Assembly (NCBI GenBank): GCA_030679255.1
Contig: JAUXTO010000013.1
Location: 190,189 to 254,188 of the forward strand
Source of the DNA: Candidatus Gottesmanbacteria bacterium
GTDB lineage: Bacteria; Patescibacteriota; Microgenomatia; UBA10105; UBA927
Direction of reading: 5' to 3'
DNA length: 64,000 bases
Shown: positions 12,874 through 56,453 of the stretch, one piece after another
Position numbering within the stretch: the first letter of the stretch is position 1
Layout of the letters: each line of letters opens with the position of its first letter
Made by a program: the position numbers and the translations under genes
The notes under the pieces: generated by a model
The model's database searches: none
Told to the model about the DNA's origin: nothing
The model's input: only the letters and a program-made list of their open reading frames with translations

Positions 12874-12907
12874 ATCACAAAATTATGCACGTGCATAATT
12901 TTGTGAT
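12874..12907. repeat. 34-bp perfect palindrome ATCACAAAATTATGCACGTGCATAATTTTGTGAT (copy 1)
   Basis: exact match to copies at 13677 and 41089. Confidence 0.9.
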
Positions 12908-13676: not shown

Positions 13677-13710
13677 ATCACAAAATTATGCACGTGCATA
13701 ATTTTGTGAT
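13677..13710. repeat. 34-bp perfect palindrome (copy 2), 15 bp upstream of PaaX-like start
   Basis: exact repeat. Confidence 0.9.
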
Positions 13711-16986: not shown

Positions 16987-18435
16987 ATGAAACCCGTACG
17001 TACGCGTATCGCGCCATCACCTACCGGCGAAAATCTCCACATTGGCAATGCCTATACGGCGCTTATCAACTACGTCGTTGCGAGACAAAACAACGGACAA
17101 TTCATTATCCGCATCGAAGACACAGACCGGACGCGGTTTGTAGAAGGATCAGAGACACGGATACTTGAGTCTCTCTCTTGGCTCGGCATCCCCCACGACG
17201 AAGGGCCGGATAACGGTGGCCCTTTTACTCCCTACAGGCAATCAGACCGCCTCGCTATCTACAAACAATATGCTGAAGAGTTAGTCAAAAAAGACCATGC
17301 CTACTACTGTTTCTGCACACCGGAACGCCTCAGCGCAATGAGGAAAGATCAGGAAGCACGGCATGAGGCGCCGAAGTATGATGGACACTGTAGAAAAGTC
17401 GAAAGTCGAAAGTCGCCTGCCCGCAATGCTACGCAAAGCGTTGCAGGCGGGAAAGTCGAAAGTGAAAAATATGTTATAAGACTCAAGGTTCCGGAAGAAG
17501 GGACGACAACATTCACCGATCTCATCCGGGGGGAGATTTCTTTTGAAAACAAGCTCATTGATGATCAGGTCATCCTCAAATCCGACGGGTATCCGACGTA
17601 TCACCTGGGGGTCGTCGTTGATGATCACCTCATGGAGATATCTCATATCATCCGCGGCGAAGAATGGATTTCCTCAACGCCAAAACACATCCTTCTCTAT
17701 AAATTTTTTGGGTGGGAGCCGCCGATCTATGCCCACATGCCGCTTCTGCGAAACCCGGATAAAAGCAAACTCTCAAAGAGAAAAAACCCGGTATGGGTGT
17801 CCTGGTACAAAGAGCAGGGATTTTTGCCTGAAGCCGTCGTCAATTATCTGGCAACGATTGCCTGGACGCATCCCGATGGAAAAGAATTATTTACGATTCT
17901 GGAAATGATACGCGTGTTTGATCTGAAAAAAATCCAAACCACGGCGCCTGTTTTTGATCTAGAAAAATTACGATGGATGAATGGAGAGTATCTAAGGCGA
18001 AGTCAAAAGTCACCTGCCCGCAATGCTACGCAAAGCGTTGCAGGCGGGAAAGTCAAAAGTCAAATCTTTGATTTTTATCATGGTAAATACGATGAAGCCA
18101 TAATAGAAAAAACTCTCTCTCTCGTAATTGAACGGATAAAAACACTGGGGGAATATGAGATGATGGCAGGATTTTTCTTTGAGAGACCTAAAGTATTCGA
18201 GCGGCCAATCAATAAAAAATTATTAACCATTGCCCAGGAAACCCTCGAAACCTGTATTTGGAATCATGACGCGATGGAAAAAGCTATACGGGAAGCGGCA
18301 GATAAGGCCAAAATGAAGGCAAAGGACGTATTTATGGAGCTTCGCGTGGCCGTCACCGGTAAAACCGTCGGACCACCACTCCTCGAGTCATTAGAACTAT
18401 TGGGAAAAGAGGAAACACTTACCCGTCTTTCTTAA
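16987..18435 (+). CDS. gltX: glutamyl-tRNA synthetase
   Basis: PSPTGENLHIGNAYTAL (HIGH) and KLSKR (KMSKS) motifs; two internal identical 14-aa segments KSPARNATQSVAGGKV. Confidence 0.9.
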   Translation: MKPVRTRIAPSPTGENLHIGNAYTALINYVVARQNNGQFIIRIEDTDRTRFVEGSETRILESLSWLGIPHDEGPDNGGPFTPYRQSDRLAIYKQYAEELVKKDHAYYCFCTPERLSAMRKDQEARHEAPKYDGHCRKVESRKSPARNATQSVAGGKVESEKYVIRLKVPEEGTTTFTDLIRGEISFENKLIDDQVILKSDGYPTYHLGVVVDDHLMEISHIIRGEEWISSTPKHILLYKFFGWEPPIYAHMPLLRNPDKSKLSKRKNPVWVSWYKEQGFLPEAVVNYLATIAWTHPDGKELFTILEMIRVFDLKKIQTTAPVFDLEKLRWMNGEYLRRSQKSPARNATQSVAGGKVKSQIFDFYHGKYDEAIIEKTLSLVIERIKTLGEYEMMAGFFFERPKVFERPINKKLLTIAQETLETCIWNHDAMEKAIREAADKAKMKAKDVFMELRVAVTGKTVGPPLLESLELLGKEETLTRLS

Positions 18436-24763: not shown

Positions 24764-24895
24764 GATGGCTCGTTAGTGAACAAATTCTTATTTGTGAGCT
24801 TACGAGCCGATCAATCCGCCAGCAATCGCAGCACGAGCCGCGCTACGAATAGTAGGTAAGGCGAGTGCTTAGATGCGGCGGATTATGGAGGAAAT

Positions 24896-25297: not shown

Positions 25298-27022
25298 TTA
25301 CACGATATGGATGTCTTTAATTTTAAGTTGAAGCCTGGAGCTGCCATTCCAGGTGTTCATGTCAATGGTATAAGCAAGGTCCACTTGTGCATCCTTCTGT
25401 AATGATCCATAGAGACTTCCTTGGTTAAAGGCTATTGCGTCCAAGAGATGAGTCGAATGGGGCTCATGGATCTCATGGGTCAGATGAATAGATGGGGAAA
25501 CCTTTAATTTGAGGTGCTTGCCGGTCGCGCCGACGAGGCGTGCTTCTTTGACAAGGAGGCATCTTGTCACAAAGACCGGCTCGGGATTACCGAAACCGAA
25601 TGGTTGAAATTGTTGGAGTGCCGTATATAACTCCATCGTCACGAACTCTAACGGAATTTCCGAATCGATTTTAAGCGAACGTGTCAGCATATCTTCCGTA
25701 ATTTCCTTTTTTGCCAATTGCTCGAGCCGCGCCTGCAACGATTCTAGATGCTTATTCTCAACAGTAAACCCTGCAGCCATCGGGTGTCCGCCGACGTCAA
25801 TGAGAATATCGCTGCACGCGCGGATCGCCTCGACAATATTAAATCCGCTGATCGATCGCGCCGATGCTTTACTGATACTCTCTCCTTTGCTTGCCACGAT
25901 CGCCGGCAGGTAATATTCTTCCATAAGTTTTCCCGCGACCAATCCGATCACGCCTGGGTTGTAGGATTCGTGGGAAACAAATAATAATTTCAATGATGAA
26001 TGCTGAATGATGAATGATGAAACAAGATTTTTGGCGTGGAGGACCGTCTCTTCTGTCAATTTTTGCCGGTCGCGGTTGGTCATTCCCAATTTTTCGGCAA
26101 GCATACTCGCTTTATCTTTTTGTTTCGTGCATAAAAGCCGGAGCGCGTCCATGGCGTGTTCGAGCCTGCCCATGGCGTTCAAGCGCGGAGCAAGCATGTG
26201 AGAAACGGTAAATACATCCAGAGCCCCACGGGTCAATCCTGCATCGGTCATGAGCGCCTCGAGCCCCACCCGTTTCGTATCATTGAGTGCAGCCAATCCA
26301 TATTTGACGATGGAACGGTTGGGACCGGTGAGCTGCACTAAATCTGCAATCGTTCCGATAGCCGCAAGAGCGATATGATCATTTAATGCTGAATGCTGAA
26401 TGCTCAATGATGAATGCTTTTGTAATTCCTTTGATAAAAACCAGGAAACGCCGGAACCAGAAAGCTTCGTCGTATGGACAATCGTGCAGTCCGGAAGTTT
26501 GTCGGGCTTGACGTGGTGGTCCGTAACAATGACTTCTATCCCCTTCTCTCGGGCATACTCTACTTTTTCCCATGCCGTAATCCCATGGTCAACGGTGATA
26601 ATGAGCGTTGGATCAAATTGTGCGCGTACTGCGTCTATTCCTTTTCGTGACAATCCATACCCTTCCTCTACCCTGTGGGGAATGTAAGGCATTGCACTCG
26701 CCCCCAAACTATGGAGCGTCTCCCACATGATGGCCCCCGCAGTGATGCCATCTGCGTCATAGTCTGCATAGACGACTATGGATTCTTTGTCCTGAATGGC
26801 TTTTTGGATGCGTTTGATGGCTTTGGAAAGCGAGGCCTTGTCTATACCAACGTCAGAGGCGGTAAGTTTGGAAGGATCGGGAGAATTCAGAAAGAGTTCG
26901 ATATCTTTTCTTGTCTTGAGCCCCCTATTTTTTAATAAAATCTTGACAATGTCTTCAACTTTCCCAGCCATAGGCTGGTCCGCCTCTGGCGGAGACTTGG
27001 CGGCAATTTCCCATTTCTTCAT
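25298..27022 (-). CDS. recJ: single-stranded-DNA-specific exonuclease RecJ
   Basis: DHH (VYADYDADGITAG, VDHGI) and DHHA1 motifs, C-terminal OB fold; contains two in-frame heptamer-repeat tracts. Confidence 0.85.
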   Translation of the reverse strand: MKKWEIAAKSPPEADQPMAGKVEDIVKILLKNRGLKTRKDIELFLNSPDPSKLTASDVGIDKASLSKAIKRIQKAIQDKESIVVYADYDADGITAGAIMWETLHSLGASAMPYIPHRVEEGYGLSRKGIDAVRAQFDPTLIITVDHGITAWEKVEYAREKGIEVIVTDHHVKPDKLPDCTIVHTTKLSGSGVSWFLSKELQKHSSLSIQHSALNDHIALAAIGTIADLVQLTGPNRSIVKYGLAALNDTKRVGLEALMTDAGLTRGALDVFTVSHMLAPRLNAMGRLEHAMDALRLLCTKQKDKASMLAEKLGMTNRDRQKLTEETVLHAKNLVSSFIIQHSSLKLLFVSHESYNPGVIGLVAGKLMEEYYLPAIVASKGESISKASARSISGFNIVEAIRACSDILIDVGGHPMAAGFTVENKHLESLQARLEQLAKKEITEDMLTRSLKIDSEIPLEFVTMELYTALQQFQPFGFGNPEPVFVTRCLLVKEARLVGATGKHLKLKVSPSIHLTHEIHEPHSTHLLDAIAFNQGSLYGSLQKDAQVDLAYTIDMNTWNGSSRLQLKIKDIHIV

Positions 27023-27045
27023 GGGCTCTATGATATCATACGGCC

Positions 27046-28440
27046 ATGATATCCCTTCCCAAAACAGCCCAGACTGTCATCGATACCCTCAAAAAAGCGG
27101 GGTTTGAAGCGTATGCAGTGGGAGGATCAGTGCGGGACACGATCATGGGAAGACCAACGAAAGGTTGGGACTTTACGACCAACGCAAAACCTGAGGAAGT
27201 ACTTGCGCTTTTTCCGGATAGTTTCTATGACAATCAGTTTGGGACGGTTGGAGTGAAAATATATAAGTCGTCAGTCGTCAGTCGTCAGTCGTCAGATGAA
27301 ATCGAAGATATCTACGAAATAACCACGTATAGAAGCGAGAAGGGATACACGGATCGGAGGCATCCGGATACCGTCATCTGGGGAAATACCATTGAGGAAG
27401 ATCTTGCCCGACGCGATTTTACGATCAATGCAATCGCCTCCGACGGACAAAAGCTCATCGATCCCTATGATGGACAAAAGGATCTCCATACAAAAATCAT
27501 CCGGTCAGTCGGTGATCCTAAAGATCGATTTGCAGAAGACGCCCTCCGTATGATGCGGGCCGTGAGACTGGCCGCTGAACTAGGATTTAGTATCGAAGAG
27601 TCAACTCTCGCCGGAATTACAACAAACGCCGGACTTTTGACGAATATTTCTCTGGAACGCATACGAGACGAACTTCTCAGGATCCTCGCCGCACAATTTG
27701 CTTCTGACGCAATCCTCGTGCTCAAAGCAACCGGCCTTCTTTCGCACATTATCCCGGAATTTGACGCGGCGTTTAGTACGCCACAAAAAAGTCCCAAACG
27801 CCACCATATCTACGATGTTGGTACCCACAGCGTGATGGCACTTAAATTTTGTCCCTCTGCTGATCCCATTGTACGGCTCGCGACACTTCTCCATGACATC
27901 GGTAAACCAAAAACCTTTCATAAAGACGAGACCGGTCTCATCACGTTTTATAACCATGAAGTCGCGGGAACGCGAATGGTGAGAACCATTGTAGAGCGCC
28001 TTCGGCTTTCTAAAAAACAAGCAGAACTCGTCCTCACGCTCGTCCGCTGGCATCAATTCAGTGTCGACGAACGCCAAACAGACGCGGCTCTCCGGCGGTT
28101 CATACGCCGCGTAGGCAAAGAGAATCTGGAAGCTATGTTGGCCCTACGGATCGGAGACCGTTTAGGTGGCGGAGCGCTCGAGACGTCGTGGCGGCTTGAA
28201 CTTTATAAAAAACGTCTGGTGGAGGTTCAAAAACAACCCTTTACGGTCCACGACCTCCTCGTCGACGGCCATGATGTGATGAGCGAGCTCAGGGTGAAAC
28301 CCGGACCCATCATTGGAAAAATCTTAGATCAATTGTTCGCCGAAGTTGAAAAAGGCACACTCACAAATAAACGGGAGGCTCTGTTGAATCGAATAAAAGA
28401 GCTTAAATCTACGAATTATGAATCTACGAATAATAATTAG
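27046..28440 (+). CDS. cca: CCA-adding tRNA nucleotidyltransferase with HD domain
   Basis: AYAVGGSVRD...GWDFTT PolBeta-NT head, HD motif LLHDIGK. Confidence 0.8.
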   Translation: MISLPKTAQTVIDTLKKAGFEAYAVGGSVRDTIMGRPTKGWDFTTNAKPEEVLALFPDSFYDNQFGTVGVKIYKSSVVSRQSSDEIEDIYEITTYRSEKGYTDRRHPDTVIWGNTIEEDLARRDFTINAIASDGQKLIDPYDGQKDLHTKIIRSVGDPKDRFAEDALRMMRAVRLAAELGFSIEESTLAGITTNAGLLTNISLERIRDELLRILAAQFASDAILVLKATGLLSHIIPEFDAAFSTPQKSPKRHHIYDVGTHSVMALKFCPSADPIVRLATLLHDIGKPKTFHKDETGLITFYNHEVAGTRMVRTIVERLRLSKKQAELVLTLVRWHQFSVDERQTDAALRRFIRRVGKENLEAMLALRIGDRLGGGALETSWRLELYKKRLVEVQKQPFTVHDLLVDGHDVMSELRVKPGPIIGKILDQLFAEVEKGTLTNKREALLNRIKELKSTNYESTNNN

Positions 28441-29367: not shown

Positions 29368-30740
29368 ATTTTTCCTTTTTCCTTTTCTCTATACAGCACT
29401 CTTACAAAAGTCCTTGTCACAATGATACCGGTAAACAGACCAACGATCACACCCAAAAATAACGTGAGCGCAAAACCCCTCACCATGCCGGACATGGGCA
29501 AAAACTGCCAATTACCGGGATTATAGAGGATGATGGCCGTCAAAATAGTCGTGACATTGGCGTCCCGTATACTATCCCACGCCCGCCCAAATGCCTGTTC
29601 CATAGCGATGCCCGATGGTTTTCCACGGCGTCGCTCCTCTTTGTACCGCTCAAAGATTAGGATATTACTATCTACCGCCATACCAATAGACAATATAAAT
29701 CCGGCAACACCGGGAAGCGTAAGCGTCACCGGAATCAAGCGAAACAACGCAAACGTCATGAGTCCATAAACGACGAGAGCCATATCTGCTAACAAACCAA
29801 GTTTCCCGTATTGAGCGATCATAAAAATTGCCACAATCGTAAGGCCAATAATCCCAGCTCTCACGCTCTTGGCAACCGATGCCGCGCCCAAGCTTGCCCC
29901 GATCGTCCGCTTCTCTACGACGCTAACGGGAACCGGAAGCGCACCGGCGGCAAGTTGCAATGATAAATTTTTTGCCTGCTCAACGCTAAACCCTCCGGTA
30001 ATGACTGCCCGTCCGTCGGTAATAGCTGTACTCACCCTCGGCCAAGTAAGCGGTTGGTCATCAAGAAATATAATAAGATGTTTATTTACTAATCGAGCCG
30101 TCTCAGAAGCAAACTTTGTGGCCCCGTCGCCACTAAACTCGAGTGCTACCTGGGGAGCCCCGGTGTCACTGCTAAAATCGAGATTTGCACTTTTCAGATC
30201 CTTACCGGTAATATTCACCGATGCGGTATTGGTAAGATTCGGAAAAACATTGGCGGCGCCTGTGGCAGCGGCGACATCACGAAACTCACGGAACTCAAGA
30301 CTTGCTGTTTGCCCGATGAGAGCAACAGCCGCCTCAACATCGGTAACGCCCGGAAGTTCGACGATCACGCGATATGCATCTGATGTTTTAGCTGTCTGCA
30401 CGACCGGTTCACTGACCCCAAAAAAATTAACCCTCCGGTCAATCACCTGGCGGGAAGATTCCAACGCATCATCGCGCTGTGCGGGCGGAATACTCTTCAT
30501 GTCAGCGTTCAGTACGATGTGCGTACCACCGGAGAGATCCAGTCCTAAACGTGTTTTGAATTGTTTTTGAATACGGAATTTCCCGGTATTTATGTTGATC
30601 TCCGGAGGATTAACCGTCACATCAATTTTTTTACCAAACAACGTTTGCTGAATCCTATAATTTTCCGGAAGATCGACTGCGGCAAGAATAATCGTGAGTA
30701 TCACGATGAACAAAAAAACCCTATGAGGATTTTGAAACAT
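29364..30740 (-). CDS. secD: protein translocase subunit SecD
   Basis: LGLDLSGG motif, SecD periplasmic and 6-TM domains. Confidence 0.85.
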   Translation of the reverse strand: MFQNPHRVFLFIVILTIILAAVDLPENYRIQQTLFGKKIDVTVNPPEININTGKFRIQKQFKTRLGLDLSGGTHIVLNADMKSIPPAQRDDALESSRQVIDRRVNFFGVSEPVVQTAKTSDAYRVIVELPGVTDVEAAVALIGQTASLEFREFRDVAAATGAANVFPNLTNTASVNITGKDLKSANLDFSSDTGAPQVALEFSGDGATKFASETARLVNKHLIIFLDDQPLTWPRVSTAITDGRAVITGGFSVEQAKNLSLQLAAGALPVPVSVVEKRTIGASLGAASVAKSVRAGIIGLTIVAIFMIAQYGKLGLLADMALVVYGLMTFALFRLIPVTLTLPGVAGFILSIGMAVDSNILIFERYKEERRRGKPSGIAMEQAFGRAWDSIRDANVTTILTAIILYNPGNWQFLPMSGMVRGFALTLFLGVIVGLFTGIIVTRTFVRVLYREKEKGKI

Positions 30741-33615: not shown

Positions 33616-33810
33616 AATATTTTATTTACGCTTGCCCGCCGCAACTTTGAGTATTATTAAAAACTTACGGAGGATCCTCCCGATCTTTCCATTCGCCTTA
33701 CCTACTATTCGTAGCGCGGCTCATGGAGCGATCTTGGGAGGACGTAAGAAACAGTAATCCTCACAAATATAGTTCGGAAACTGTTTCTAACGAAGGAGGT
33801 GAAATAAATT

Positions 33811-35572: not shown

Positions 35573-36010
35573 TTACCAATCGCGGCCACCGGAGTTATCT
35601 CCGCCACGGTATCCACCTCGGTCTCCACCGCGGTGTCCACCTCCACCACCACCGCCGTATCCACCTCTATTTCCGCCGCCGCCTCCTCCACCGCCGCGGT
35701 ACCCACCGCTTGAACCACCGCCCCGATATCCACCGCCTCCACCGCCGCCGCCAGTACGTGGCTCCATGGGTCGGGCTTCATTAACGATCACTGGCCGTCC
35801 ATCAAGTTGTTTCCCGTTCCAAAGCTCAATAGCTTTATTGGCTTCTTCTTGACTCGCCATTTCCACAAATCCAAATCCTTTGGATCGCCCCGTCATCCGG
35901 TCGATGATGACTTTGGCAGATACGACCGATCCAGCTTGAGCAAACGCATCAGCAAGGGATTGGTCCGTAACATTATATGATAAACTTCCTACAAATAATT
36001 TATTTGCCAT
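35573..36010 (-). CDS. RRM-type RNA-binding protein with Gly/Arg-rich tail
   Basis: KLFVGSL RNP2 and KGFGFVEM RNP1; GGYRGG repeats. Confidence 0.75.
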   Translation of the reverse strand: MANKLFVGSLSYNVTDQSLADAFAQAGSVVSAKVIIDRMTGRSKGFGFVEMASQEEANKAIELWNGKQLDGRPVIVNEARPMEPRTGGGGGGGGYRGGGSSGGYRGGGGGGGGNRGGYGGGGGGGHRGGDRGGYRGGDNSGGRDW

Positions 36011-41088: not shown

Positions 41089-41122
41089 ATCACAAAATTA
41101 TGCACGTGCATAATTTTGTGAT
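41089..41122. repeat. 34-bp perfect palindrome (copy 3), 20 bp upstream of miaA start
   Basis: exact repeat. Confidence 0.9.
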
Positions 41123-42384: not shown

Positions 42385-42867
42385 TTATGGGGCTTCGATA
42401 GTAAAAGATTCGAGCATGTTGCCCGAAGTATAGACGGCCGTATATGAGAGCACTTCTTTGGTCGTTGAAAACAGCCGGTTTCCTAGTAGTTTAATCTCAG
42501 CCAACACCTTGTCGTGCGAAAATATTTCCGAAGGCGTCAACCACACGAGTCTTCCTTCCGGACAGTTTTCCAGAACGTTACCTTTGTCATAATCGGCAAA
42601 CACAAAATGAAAATAAAATTCCTGATCCAGGTCCCGTAGATACGCGTTGCCGGTGGCTTTGATCCTGAGATTTTTTATACGGAGCCCCGTCTCTTCGAAG
42701 ACCTCCCTCCTAGCACAGGCAAAGAGTCCCTCATTAAACTCCCGTTTTCCTCCCGGGGCCATCAAAACTCCCGGCATGATCCGCTTCCCCGAGTCACGAT
42801 GAAGCATGAGATACTTCCCGTCCTTGTGGATAAAACACTCGAGAGTAACAGCTATATTACGGTTCAT
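42385..42867 (-). CDS. NUDIX hydrolase
   Basis: GGKREFNEGLFACARREVFEETGL Nudix box. Confidence 0.7.
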   Translation of the reverse strand: MNRNIAVTLECFIHKDGKYLMLHRDSGKRIMPGVLMAPGGKREFNEGLFACARREVFEETGLRIKNLRIKATGNAYLRDLDQEFYFHFVFADYDKGNVLENCPEGRLVWLTPSEIFSHDKVLAEIKLLGNRLFSTTKEVLSYTAVYTSGNMLESFTIEAP

Positions 42868-42927
42868 ATCAACATTGTAGCAATAACAAAAAATAATTTA
42901 TAGGAGTTTAAAGGAATTTAAAGGAGT

Positions 42928-43677
42928 TTATGAAAGAATGAACTTTTCTATGACGGTTGCAACGCCGTCCTCATCAACAGAAGGCGCGATAAAGTCTGCA
43001 ATTGCTTTGAGTTGCGGTACTGCATTTCCCATAGCGATTTTCAGACCACACGCGGAAAGTAGCGGATAATCATTATAACTATCCCCGACACCAATTATTT
43101 CATCTGTTCGTATTTTTAATAATTCTGCAATCCTTACAACCGCATGAAGTTTTGTCGCAAGCGCGTTTGACACTGATGCCCAGAATAAGCCTTTTTTAAA
43201 CGATGGATTTTTATGTACTGCGATACCTTGTATTTTTGTTAAGTGTTCTATCAGCTTATCAACAGTAGATTCTGATAAATCAGGCATTGCTATATCAGTC
43301 AGAGTATCCGGCCAGGGTCCCCCTGTATACTCATATTCTTTTTCCCCTTCACCGATAAGCACAACTTCGGGTTTGTATTGTTTTATTATCCTGTATGCCT
43401 GATCTGCAATGCCATGATCCAGAGAAATCGTGTCAATGATGGTGTCATCGGCTGCATTATATAATTGCGTCGAATCATGAACCGAACACAAGCTGTTAAG
43501 ACCTAATTCCTTGATCACGCGCTTGGCAATAAAAAGCGGTCTCCCCGTGGCAACGCAAACATGCGTCTGTTTTTGTGCCAGACCAATGGTTTCCAACACC
43601 CGAACGCTAGGATGAGAATCAATACCCAATGGAATGGTGGTACCATCCAAATCTAAAATAATCGCTTTATATTTCAT
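42928..43677 (-). CDS. Cof-type HAD-IIB hydrolase
   Basis: AIILDLDGT motif I, GDSYND motif IV. Confidence 0.7.
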   Translation of the reverse strand: MKYKAIILDLDGTTIPLGIDSHPSVRVLETIGLAQKQTHVCVATGRPLFIAKRVIKELGLNSLCSVHDSTQLYNAADDTIIDTISLDHGIADQAYRIIKQYKPEVVLIGEGEKEYEYTGGPWPDTLTDIAMPDLSESTVDKLIEHLTKIQGIAVHKNPSFKKGLFWASVSNALATKLHAVVRIAELLKIRTDEIIGVGDSYNDYPLLSACGLKIAMGNAVPQLKAIADFIAPSVDEDGVATVIEKFILS

Positions 43678-43759
43678 AACGGCATTGTAGCAATACCAAA
43701 GAATAATTTATAGGAGTTTAAAGGAGTTTAAGGGAATCTAGAAAAAAATGAACGACTAG

Positions 43760-49427: not shown

Positions 49428-49700
49428 TTACCGGACAACTTTCTTCAGTGCTTTGCCAGCGGTAAATCCCGGTGTTTTTCGCGCCGGAATATTGATCGCG
49501 GCTCCAGTCTGCGGATTCCGTCCTGTTCTGGATTTCCTCGAACGCACCATGAATGTTCCGAATCCTGTGACGACCACTTTGTCACCTTTTTTGAGTGAAT
49601 CCGTGATCGAACCAAACACAGCTACCACTGCTTCACGAGCGGCTTTGGCTGTGAGACTCGCTTTTTTTGCAACGACTTCAATGAGATCTGCTTTTGTCAT
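49428..49700 (-). CDS. hupB: DNA-binding protein HU
   Basis: MTKADLIEVVA...GFGTF...RNPQTG; GGAGGTG SD. Confidence 0.85.
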   Translation of the reverse strand: MTKADLIEVVAKKASLTAKAAREAVVAVFGSITDSLKKGDKVVVTGFGTFMVRSRKSRTGRNPQTGAAINIPARKTPGFTAGKALKKVVR

Positions 49701-49809: not shown

Positions 49810-49886
49810 TACATCAATTCAAAAAATTAAAAGTCGAAAGTCATAAAGTCAAAAGTCCATAACGTTATAAAAGTGAAATGTGGAGT

Positions 49887-51586: not shown

Positions 51587-52072
51587 CTATTGTACCCTAC
51601 CGCCCACCACCTCGTCAATGACCCTGCGGATAGTATCTGCGTCAAAACCACGCCGACCGAGGAATCCGTAGATCTTCTTTTTTTGCTCAATCTTAGGCAA
51701 TGTTTGCCACCGTTCTAACTTTTTAGCCAGGGCCTGGCGGGCTAATCCCACCTCATCTGGCTGTTTGATTTCAACTGCAACTCCCTTGGCTTTCAATTCC
51801 TGAAGAATAAGTCGGTTTCCTTTAGGCTTATGGGATTGGCGTTGATCCACCCACCACGCGGCGAATTTCTCATCATTGACGTAATCAAGCTCACGCAGAC
51901 GGGCGATGACGCGATCAAGAATAGGAAACTGGATCCTCGCGTCTCGCGCGGGGATGACAGATAAACGAGAAAGTTTTTTTGCCAAATACGCTCTCATTTC
52001 CTTTTCGCTCCGGGGACGGAAGGAGACGAAGTGAAACGAAGCATCGAGAAGTTTTTGGTAGAGATCCTCCAT
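51587..52072 (-). CDS. recX: recombination regulator RecX
   Basis: RecX three-helix repeat family; start set at MEDLY since upstream codons lie in a nonamer tandem repeat. Confidence 0.65.
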   Translation of the reverse strand: MEDLYQKLLDASFHFVSFRPRSEKEMRAYLAKKLSRLSVIPARDARIQFPILDRVIARLRELDYVNDEKFAAWWVDQRQSHKPKGNRLILQELKAKGVAVEIKQPDEVGLARQALAKKLERWQTLPKIEQKKKIYGFLGRRGFDADTIRRVIDEVVGGRVQ

Positions 52073-52128
52073 AAGAAATACTACCAATACTACCAATAAT
52101 CAAATACTACCAATACTACCAAAACAAA

Positions 52129-53166
52129 TTACTCTTCCTCCTCCACCCCCATGGCAACTTTCGGGTGGGCAGCTCCGGTCTTGACGGCTTTCCAGATAGC
52201 GTCGGTGATTTCCTTCGTGAGTTTTCCGTTTTCTTTTAGGAAAAGCTTCGCCGCTTCCCTCCCTTGTCCGAGCATCTGGGTGCCGTACTTGAGAAACGCG
52301 CCGGATTTTGTCAAAATATTGAGTTCCAATCCGACGTCAATCAAGCCTCCCTCTTTGGAGATGCCGTCATGCATGACGTCAAACTCCGCGACCCGAAACG
52401 GCGGCGAGACTTTATTTTTTACGATCCGCACGCGGTGACGGCTCCCAATCACGCGGTCTCCATCTTTGAGACTCTCGATTTTGCGTGAGTCCATCCGGAC
52501 GCTCGCATAAAACTTGAGGGCCATCCCTCCGGTCGTCGTTTCGGGATTACCGAACATCACACCGATTTTTTGGCGCAACTGATTGGTAAATATGACAATC
52601 GTTTTGGATTTGGAAATGACTGCAGTGAGCTTGCGAAGAGCCTGGGACATGAGCCGGGCATGGACGCCCATCATGCTATCGCCCATCTCGCCTTCGATTT
52701 CCGCACGCGGCACCAACGCTGCTACTGAATCGATAACGATCACGTCAATGCCACCGCTGCGGATGAGGGTCTCCGCTATCTCCAGACCCTGCTCGCCGGT
52801 ATCCGGTTGAGAAATGAGCAGATCATCAAGTTTGACGCCCAAAATCTCCGCCCATTGGGGATCGAGGGCATGTTCGGCGTCGATAAACGCGGCTACCCCG
52901 CCAGCCTTCTGCGCTTCAGCAATCGTCGAGAGACATACCGTCGTTTTGCCCGATGCCTCGGGGCCGTATATTTCTACAATCCTGCCGCACGGCAGGCCTC
53001 CAACACCAAGTCCCAAATCTAAAGGAAGAATGCCTGTGGAAATAACGTCGATGGCTAGTTTTCCTGCATTTTGCTCACCCAACATCATGATCGAACCTTT
53101 TCCGTATTGTTTCTCGATCTGGTCCATGGCGAGGCGAATGGCGGCGAGTTTTGGGTCTGTAGCCAT
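52129..53166 (-). CDS. recA: recombinase RecA
   Basis: GPEASGKTT Walker [13 protein letters not shown]1/L2 loops. Confidence 0.9.
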
Positions 53167-54892: not shown

Positions 54893-55003
54893 AGGGGCTA
54901 ACAGCTTTGAAATTCGATTCTAACTTTTTGATATAACCCGACTTAAAAACTGCATTAATTTGGATTGTTCTGACAATGTTTTCAAGGACCGTCCCTAAAA
55001 ATA
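54893..55003 (+). repeat. direct repeat, left copy (~93% identical to 56338-56453)
   Basis: alignment by eye; on minus strand it ends in RIFRDGP-stop. Confidence 0.8.
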
Positions 55004-56337: not shown

Positions 56338-56453
56338 CCGAACTAATAGTTTTGAAATTCGGTTCTAACTTTTTGATATAACCCGACTTAAAAACTGCAT
56401 TAATTTGGATTGTTCTGACGCTCTTTTCAAGGACCATCCCTAAAATAGGGACA
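56338..56453 (+). repeat. direct repeat, right copy; contains the 3' end of the HAD-IB gene
   Basis: see left copy. Confidence 0.8.

Follow-up and report, generated by a model that had tools for sequence, protein, structure and literature searches.

Introduction

Heptanucleotide repeats have been described as the most abundant class of long simple sequence repeats (SSRs) in many prokaryotes, and it has been proposed that they arise through polymerase slippage with a contact of approximately 7 nt (Mrazek et al. 2007, as summarized in passages of PMC4679880 and PMC4692102). Their over-representation in prokaryotes has been known since 2007 and is still without explanation. SSRs are generally suppressed in the middle of proteins in prokaryotic coding sequences (PMC3315296), and units that are not a multiple of three are reported, in a passage of PMC4679880, to avoid coding regions. 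Here we describe heptanucleotide arrays in a 64,000-nt stretch of DNA, referred to as the window, from Candidatus Gottesmanbacteria, an uncultivated, groundwater-type lineage of the Microgenomates within the candidate phyla radiation (CPR). The arrays lie within the genes recJ, cca and gltX and in several intergenic spacers. As in the SSRs described by Mrazek et al., 7-nt units are arranged in tandem, period 7 is over-represented relative to neighboring periods and many units occur per genome. According to the same summaries, those SSRs are found mainly in Burkholderia, cyanobacteria, Xanthomonas and actinobacteria, whereas the arrays described here occur in CPR bacteria, are in frame within coding sequence in approximately 87% of cases and have a fixed size of approximately 32 nt.

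TAACTGA direct repeats are found in marine Beggiatoaceae, cyanobacteria and Bacteroidetes (MacGregor 2015, PMC4679880). Two to six heptamer copies lie directly upstream of start codons, an arrangement shared by the (TAGCTGA)5 arrays of the window at rpmJ and rplQ and not by the tracts in recJ and cca. The TAACTGA unit carries stops in all frames in one orientation and is translatable in the reverse orientation; the TAGCTGA of the window is one mismatch away. A single unit dominates the TAACTGA system, which is confined almost wholly to intergenic DNA, whereas here there are dozens of units and the arrays are mostly coding. GGGAATC and GGGGAYT heptamer repeats have been described in Xanthomonas and Nostoc (Rehm et al. 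2015, PMC4692102). As in the present lineage, some inverted pairs of such repeats form stem-loops, and their length and sequence vary between close species at the same intergenic positions; however, they are G-rich, quadruplex-forming and intergenic, whereas the arrays described here have an A-rich sense strand and are mostly coding. The same likenesses and differences apply to the heptamers of cyanobacterial short tandemly repeated repetitive (STRR) sequences, which Mazel and co-workers reportedly described in 1990.

A coding heptanucleotide repeat is known from neuO of Escherichia coli K1, a dispensable, phage-borne surface-modification gene that carries 3-53 copies of AAGACTC (mode 20) at its 5' end (PMC13001214). 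As in the arrays of the window, the 7-nt unit is translated as a 7-residue repeat, and the gene stays in frame only at copy numbers that are multiples of three. Heterogeneity within populations has been quantified for neuO, whereas four to five copies lie in the middle of genes for housekeeping enzymes here and essentially no variation was observed. Tandem repeats in Borgs create disordered protein regions, and all of their units within open reading frames (ORFs) are divisible by three (PMC9879509). They resemble the present arrays in being perfect nucleotide repeats in ORFs, recent and fast-evolving, different between relatives, and a source of additional polar or disordered loops. The difference is in the unit, which is 7 nt long here, with every unit step shifting the frame.

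Rickettsia palindromic elements (RPEs) of 100-150 bp were reportedly found inserted in frame in protein genes by Ogata and co-workers in 2000, and small dispersed repeats are said to have been described in Nostoc by Elhai and co-workers in 2008. Both are dispersed, in frame, in conserved genes and at surface-exposed sites, where they leave function intact, and a 36-nt hairpin element in gltX is their closer analogue in the window. RPEs are said to be palindromes, whereas the arrays described here are direct tandem arrays of 30-35 nt; among the gltX features only the nested 36-nt element is a hairpin. In common with RPEs, the arrays leave ORFs intact, occupy loops and helix ends (as judged from an AlphaFold2 (AF2) model of RecJ and an alignment gap in the structure 1MIV for the cca product) and have copies at several loci of the same genome. 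In the literature, no report was found of a heptanucleotide-repeat excess in CPR bacteria, nor of mostly coding, in-frame, fixed-size arrays that recur in core enzymes and are nested with hairpins.

Tracts were detected with Tandem Repeats Finder (TRF) and with an exact-run scan requiring at least 11 matching positions, and 100 dinucleotide-preserving shuffles of the window served as the null model. The comparison set comprised 80 loci, 1.37 Mb in total, each surrounding a recJ ortholog from Gottesmanbacteria, Levybacteria or other Microgenomates; individual loci and their genomes are cited below by L numbers. RecJ was aligned across 31 orthologs and cca was compared across 62.

Period-7 arrays in the window and across the lineage

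Exact runs of period 7 number seven in the window, compared with none of periods 5 and 6, one of period 8 and two of period 9. Shuffled sequences contained a mean of 0.00-0.03 runs per period, and 0.00 of period 7. The unusual density of 7- and 9-bp repeats that had been proposed in a sequence-only reading of the window is thus a clear excess over chance, and the excess is confirmed as specific to period 7. All four of the tracts located in that reading are present, with coordinates that agree to within 1-2 nt, and its translations (..QKHSSLSIQHSALN.., ..SSFIIQHSSLK.. and ..KSSVVSRQSSD..) are correct. The AGCTATC and AAAGTC tracts that it mentioned are real as well, the former as (TATCAGC)4.9 at 60527-60560 and 63219-63252 and the latter as AAAGTCN arrays at 17395, 18049 and 49829. 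Each unit family is present at two to four loci of the window, with AATGMTG, AGTCNTC and TATCAGC at two loci each and AAAGTCN at three to four.

The same period dominates the 80 loci of the comparison set, in which the exact-run scan returned 52 runs of period 7 compared with five of period 6, eight of period 8 and five of period 9. Non-redundant TRF calls put 69 arrays at period 7 and a further 35 at period 14, the latter made up of diverged heptamers in pairs; two arrays had period 6, and periods 8 and 9 gave 10-11. The lengths of the arrays have a sharp peak at 30-35 nt, equivalent to 4.3-5 copies. The histogram of run lengths is bimodal, with modes at 11-14 and 23-28 matching positions, almost no runs at 15-22 and very few longer arrays, although some reach 7.4 and 8.3 copies. 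Density differs strongly between genomes, from zero up to 8 arrays in 13 kb.

Most of the period-7 arrays (60 of 69, approximately 87%) lie wholly inside ORFs and in frame. As the coding fraction of these loci, based on crude ORF calls, is 0.91, the arrays are not depleted from genes. The sense strand of the arrays contains 47% A and 10% G, compared with 30% and 23% in the background, and 26 of 59 units are of the TCAAANN type. Consensus units free of stops in all frames make up 48 of 59 when read in the sense orientation, compared with 12 of 59 in the antisense orientation, and translation gives peptides rich in K, S, I, N and Q. A stop-free filter alone predicts just 24% A; therefore, there must be a further contribution, either from selection favoring polar loops or from a preference of the generator for certain sequences. 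Array sites recur among RecJ orthologs at residues ~8-20, 120-130, 200-215 and 490-540, and recur also in a hairpin loop of the CCA-adding enzyme. The suggestion in the sequence-only reading that the tracts are footprints of a single repeat-generating process is supported in a broader form, as the pattern is specific to period 7, extends over the whole lineage and has a common size and composition.

With approximately even confidence, we attribute this pattern to a lineage-wide process acting in a 7-nt register that would make and homogenize arrays, together with copying between arrays that would spread them and selection that would filter them. Slippage or template switching with a strong bias to the 7-nt register may create the arrays and keep their units uniform, and short-homology copying or gene conversion between loci may produce genome-specific unit families. 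Selection in gene-dense DNA would keep coding arrays on three conditions. The net gain in length would have to be divisible by three, as in the typical case of 7 residues from three additional units; the unit would have to be stop-free in the three sense frames and encode polar residues; and the site would have to be a surface loop. One-unit slips in recJ or cca would then be deleterious or neutral accidents instead of a programmed switch, and opposed arrays in intergenic spacers would pair to give long hairpins beside start codons.

Tracts in recJ and cca

The recJ gene (25298..27022, minus strand) encodes a single-stranded-DNA exonuclease of 574 aa and contains two heptamer tracts and one hairpin-type insert. 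Its product is 100% identical to the RecJ of a Candidatus Gottesmanbacteria metagenome-assembled genome, with DHH, DHHA1 and RecJ_OB domains; among the relatives of the window genome in the protein collection, no RecJ was closer than 79% identity. The gene had been labeled essential in the sequence-only reading, a label that does not hold for recJ in general.

Tract 1 (25992..26021, minus strand) was detected by TRF as 4.3 copies of an AATGATG-type unit with 91% matches. On the sense strand it reads (TCATCAT/TCAGCAT)4.3 and encodes residues ~334-344, SSFIIQHSSLK, which in the AF2 model form the C-terminal end of helix 302-340 and the loop 341-346. Tract 2 (26385..26418, minus strand), referred to as site A, was detected by TRF as 4.9 copies of an AATGCTG-type unit with 85% matches. 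It is truly of period 14, with the sense strand (GCATTCA TCATTCA)2.x, and encodes residues ~201-213, KHSSLSIQHSALN. In the model this segment is the loop 203-209 between helices 189-202 and 210-226, with a predicted local distance difference test (pLDDT) score of 67 compared with 86.7 for the model overall. The two tracts are 88% alike. Both are hypervariable indel sites in the alignment of 31 orthologs, and other genomes have different fillers or none at these positions.

A third variable site is found at the N-terminus of RecJ, where the window carries a small double-hairpin insert, KSPPEADQPMAGK (26963..26998, minus strand), flanked by AAGTC../GAAAGTTG array remnants. Hairpin filler beside array remnants is seen at this site in L095 as well as in the window, and heptamer arrays occupy it in L006, L011, L016, L060 and L076. 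The insert encodes the peptide SPPEADQPMAG, which recurs as PPKADQPLAEK in the RecJ of several other Gottesmanbacteria. The dispersed hairpin-derived peptides SVIPAKAGIQ, SFPRKRES, GSRPVKKQGE and GLTLRWQGETF occupy the same loops in other genomes.

The divergently transcribed cca gene (27046..28440, plus strand) encodes a CCA-adding enzyme (tRNA nucleotidyltransferase) of 464 aa with the Pfam domains PolyA_pol, PolyA_pol_RNAbd, HD and tRNA_NucTran2_2 and a match to the Bacillus enzyme 1MIV (E = 2e-51). An exact-protein look-up of this product returned no other record. The tract, a perfect (AGTCGTC)4.3 at 27266..27295 (plus strand), encodes residues ~74-84, SSVVSRQSSD, and lies opposite a 12-residue gap of 1MIV in the beta-hairpin of the head domain. 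With 15 aa, the loop in the window exceeds that of L005 and L022 (8 aa) by 7 aa, which equals three units. Other arrays fill the same loop in L006, (AAGCGAC)4.9, in L058, (ACAGGAA)4, and in L016, an octamer array. In L032, L015, L025 and L075 it is filled by palindromic hairpin elements.

Conservation of the tracts in distant relatives, which the sequence-only reading had associated with ordinary low-complexity protein segments, was found for site A only. This tract is common to the three diverged genomes L094, L095 and L097 with 83-90% nucleotide identity to the window, whereas the cca tract was found in the window genome alone among the 62 orthologs. Third codon positions in the flanks of site A are 39-45% identical between the window and these three genomes. 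Over all six pairs of the four genomes, the array is 83-95% identical and the flanking third codon positions 39-52%. At the protein level, an KHSSFSIHHSALNDH-type segment is common to the four RecJ orthologs, and this is what speaks for low-complexity segments with a role in the protein and only incidental periodicity in the DNA. We give such an account hardly any credence. The repeats are exact at the nucleotide level and their 7-nt register crosses all three codon phases, third codon positions are better conserved within the site A array than in its flanks, the cca tract has no counterpart among its orthologs, and the same arrays are also present in non-coding spacers.

Copy number and the question of switching

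The sequence-only reading had proposed that the tracts are candidates for slipped-strand variation. Natural variation was found in an (AATTTCA)n array at recJ codons 9-19 of a groundwater Gottesmanbacteria species, which has 4 copies in 13 contigs and 3 in L081. In L081 (~1495-1560, compared with L082-L093) the first 8 codons are shifted, which leaves the canonical start out of frame, and an overlapping ATG serves as the new start of the ORF (MGHHQ...). Gene callers also picked three different starts on identical DNA. Among the members of ten RecJ clusters at 90% identity, no in-frame length variants were found. Length variants in a second RecJ cluster were traced to a 1-nt homopolymer indel and differing start calls and not to array changes, and the difference between P0138 and P0046 was a gene-caller start choice only. 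A population pattern scan of metagenome contigs returned a single contig.

One-unit slippage therefore happens in nature, and the arrays are not hypervariable. The proposal of slipped-strand variability receives weak support from the natural loss of one unit in L081. The tracts of the window are short, in two cases imperfect, and located in the middle of genes for housekeeping proteins, and the ten RecJ clusters showed no in-frame length variants; for these reasons, the recJ and cca tracts are read as fixed, translated loop insertions and not as contingency switches.

A neuO-like contingency system, in which recJ and cca would be turned ON and OFF by slipped-strand mispairing, is accordingly regarded as very improbable. 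Its attraction is that a 7-nt unit shifts the frame unless the copy number changes by three, that the one-unit deletion in the recJ 5' array of a related species is a natural event, after which the ORF is restored by an overlapping ATG, and that neuO provides an existing coding heptanucleotide switch (PMC13001214). However, the 4.3-4.9 copies of the window tracts are few beside the copy numbers of neuO (3-53, mode 20; PMC13001214), and the recJ tracts have only 85-91% matches. The tracts also lie mid-gene in housekeeping enzymes (residues 201-213 and 334-344 of RecJ and 74-84 of the CCA-adding enzyme), so that OFF would mean loss of function. In addition, 13 of 14 contigs of the related species have an equal copy number, and the ten RecJ clusters are without in-frame variants.

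Arrays in gltX and nested hairpin elements

The gltX gene (16987..18435, plus strand) encodes a glutamyl-tRNA synthetase (GluRS) of 482 aa with the Pfam domains tRNA-synt_1c and Anticodon_2 and contains two AAAGTCN arrays. Array 1 (17395..17470, plus strand) comprises (AAAGTCG)3, a 36-nt hairpin element at 17416-17451, and AAAGTCG AAAGTGA. Array 2 (18000..18066, plus strand) comprises (AAGTCAA)2, an identical 36-nt hairpin element at 18013-18048, and (AAAGTCA)2.x. Arrays recur in many GluRS orthologs after YDGxC[RK] and after NGEY[LI]R. The hairpin element, CCTGCCCGCAATGCTACGCAAAGCGTTGCAGGCGGG, encodes PARNATQSVAGG and is placed in frame and mid-array in both cases. Its folding energy is -19.8 kcal/mol at 17416-17451 and about -20 to -23 kcal/mol overall. 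The element is absent from all 100 other loci; three other hairpin-split arrays were found, in L001, L016 and L064.

Without its hairpin, array 2 is 30 nt long, the same as the uninterrupted array of L032, which indicates that the hairpin was inserted without a target-site duplication. The same equality rules out a candidate in which the arrays are stacked 7-bp target-site duplications left by insertion and excision of hairpins.

Spacer arrays and operon hairpins

Opposed arrays that pair into hairpins are found in spacers of the ribosomal-protein operon. A composite element of approximately 75 nt is present in two copies in the window. The first (60526..60600, minus strand) lies in the rpoA-rplQ spacer, where an AGTCNTC-type arm pairs with (GATAGCT)5 to give a long imperfect hairpin (-30.6 kcal/mol, z = -3.6) that abuts the rplQ ATG. 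The second (63218..63292, minus strand), in the infA-rpmJ spacer, is 92% identical and folds with -32.3 kcal/mol (z = -4.1); there is an overlap between its (TAGCTGA)5 and the rpmJ start codon (63219). Read in the direction of the genes, (TAGCTGA)5 abuts the start codons of rpmJ (63219) and rplQ (60525). In the rpmJ-rpsM spacer, opposed 8-9-nt arrays, AAGTCTATA / AAGGACTTT, form a hairpin at 63030..63087 (minus strand; -20.3 kcal/mol, z = -4.5). In the infA-rpmJ, rpmJ-rpsM and rpoA-rplQ spacers, the downstream start codon follows immediately after the hairpin, with no obvious Shine-Dalgarno sequence.

Several spacers and gene junctions contain single arrays. A perfect octamer array, (AATCTACA)3.4, was found by TRF and the exact-run scan in the map-infA spacer (63553..63579, minus strand), and the same two methods gave (GGAAAAA)2.6 at the junction of the secD stop and the secF start (29369..29386, minus strand). 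An imperfect AAAGTCN array of period 7-8 with ~4 copies (49829..49871, minus strand) separates the rny stop from the HU gene (49428..49700, minus strand). The recA-recX spacer holds 9-mer repeats, (TTGGTAGTA)2 N8 (TTGGTAGTA)2 (52069..52129, minus strand), in which two pairs of copies of the 9-mer AATACTACC are 8 nt apart. These had been assigned in the sequence-only reading to the 5' end of recX and its spacer. The spacer assignment is retained, as the repeat is upstream of the likely recX ATG at 52072, whereas a position inside recX proper is not. The longest recX ORF begins at a TTG at 52096, within the 9-mer repeat, and the ATG at 52072 (MEDLYQKLL...) looks like the real start. If that ATG is the true recX start, the repeat lies wholly in the recA-recX spacer.

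The position of these hairpins raises the possibility that the arrays are functional nucleic-acid elements, either an RNA or single-stranded-DNA platform for an oligomeric protein or hairpins acting in translation or processing, in which periodicity and length would be selected and sequence would not. We consider this improbable. It would agree with the conservation of position, length and periodicity alongside free unit sequence, with the stable intergenic hairpins that abut the rpmJ, rplQ and rpsM starts (z -3.6 to -4.5), and with the nucleotide-level conservation of the site A array. The TAACTGA repeats upstream of starts in Beggiatoaceae, one base different from TAGCTGA, have been proposed to be translation regulators (PMC4679880). 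On the other side, many orthologs are without an array or have an unrelated hairpin filler with no sign of cost, and orthologous arrays are generally not conserved. The units are too varied to suit a sequence-specific binder, no complementary partner lies close to the coding arrays, and the arrays matched no Rfam family in a search in which only two tRNAs were matched.

Similarity between arrays and their origin

Orthologous positions do not in general carry related arrays. A post-hoc list of orthologous arrays appeared striking, as it suggested near-identity between genomes in which synonymous sites are saturated; however, in an unbiased control the mean best-register identity was 0.56 for pairs at orthologous sites compared with 0.54 for pairs at unrelated sites, and general nucleotide conservation of orthologous arrays was rejected, with site A excepted. 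In L060 and L076, which are the most closely related pair of genomes (third-position identity 0.67), the same four RecJ sites are occupied by arrays, but the units differ. Array units are thus genome-specific and positions are shared, the exception being the recJ tract at 26385.

Within a genome, similarity between loci is higher. Pairs of arrays that reach 0.8 identity make up 17.9% of those at different loci of the same genome compared with 6.0% of those between genomes (p = 6e-5), a comparison that is partly confounded by genome base composition. Irregular variants are shared between the recJ N-terminal array and the gltX array of L076, and between two recJ sites in L061. In the window, the cca tract and the array at 63257-63290 are 91% complementary and have equal length and phase. 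Short-homology copying between resident arrays, as proposed above, would produce such pairs.

Similarity of this kind is also what would be expected of dispersed mobile or copy-pasted elements of ~32 nt with an inherent 7-nt periodicity, inserted as pre-formed blocks at permissive or preferred sites, in which respect they would be similar to the small dispersed repeats of cyanobacteria or to RPEs. We regard this origin as unlikely. In its favor, the narrow size of 30-35 nt is common to coding and intergenic arrays, one unit family is found at two to four loci of the window in the same phase and length, and presence at orthologous sites is patchy among relatives. Similarity is greater within than between genomes, irregularities are shared in some pairs, and four genomes in which synonymous sites are saturated have almost the same site A array. 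However, the arrays showed no conserved termini, no target-site duplications and no transposase linked to them, and dozens of units exist, even within one locus. The one-unit deletion and the arrays of 7.4 and 8.3 copies indicate local slippage in register, and ectopic gene conversion between resident arrays accounts equally well for the shared copies.

Several observations weigh against the 7-nt-register process that we favor. Intergenic arrays, which are free of any frame, share the mode of 4.3-4.9 copies with coding arrays, so that the frame filter alone is insufficient to set array size; as the sole cause of the 4.x-copy mode it is weakened. An event of +21 nt was never observed among the arrays compared. 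Steps of 21 nt cannot homogenize adjacent units, and arrays of perfect period 14 would call for steps of 14 nt, each of which is a frameshift. The shared phase, length and short flanks of the cca tract and the array at 63257-63290 suggest copy-and-paste of a pre-formed element more than they do independent slippage. The only -7 variant comes from one metagenomic contig, and the effect of base composition on the comparison within and between genomes has been noted above. Conservation of the site A array in four genomes is far above that of synonymous sites, and neutral slippage predicts otherwise. The 7-nt register itself is left without an explanation.

A further possibility is one that we regard as speculative and unlikely. 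Arrays of ~32 nt would be actively maintained across Microgenomates at fixed positions in housekeeping genes and operon spacers and homogenized, both within a locus and between loci, by an activity in replication or recombination that is dedicated to them or otherwise unusual, and they would have a role as nucleic acids, for instance as landing pads for hairpins or as periodic platforms. Length, periodicity and position would be selected, and the unit would drift.

Other repeats in the window

A perfect 34-nt palindrome, ATCACAAAATTATGCACGTGCATAATTTTGTGAT, is present three times (12874-12907, 13677-13710 and 41089-41122) with similar flanks of ~45 nt and may be an operator, a terminator or an element of the repetitive extragenic palindromic type. 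An 81-nt repeat with 85% identity (42863-42943 and 43673-43753) is located at the junctions of three tandem minus-strand genes and includes three tandem copies of the decamer TTTAAAGGAG. A 103-nt direct repeat with 93% identity (54898-55000 and 56343-56445, spacing 1445 nt) lies inside a low-GC stretch at 54-58 kb (36-37% compared with ~46% elsewhere) that may be an island or a mobile segment. Inverted arms of 59 nt, 83% complementary and 8.8 kb apart (24825-24883 / 33674-33732), bracket recJ, cca, secF, secD and their neighbors. A 145-aa ORF (35573-36010, minus strand) consists mostly of period-12, period-24 and period-27 repeats with CCACC/GCC-rich units and encodes a Gly-rich protein; these are the only long triplet-compatible repeats of the window.

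Significance

Genes are expected to lose repeats whose unit length is not divisible by three, as each slip breaks the frame, and a lineage with small genomes nevertheless retains them in frame at recurrent loop positions of core enzymes. Replication or repair in these organisms would therefore seem to have an unusual property, one that is open to study by sequence alone. The arrays steadily supply proteins with new loops and are also a source of hairpin insertions nested within them. In metagenome annotation they cause wrong start calls and apparent frameshifts, and they could possibly be used as strain markers. If their size and periodicity turn out to be under selection, they would represent a cis element of a new kind.

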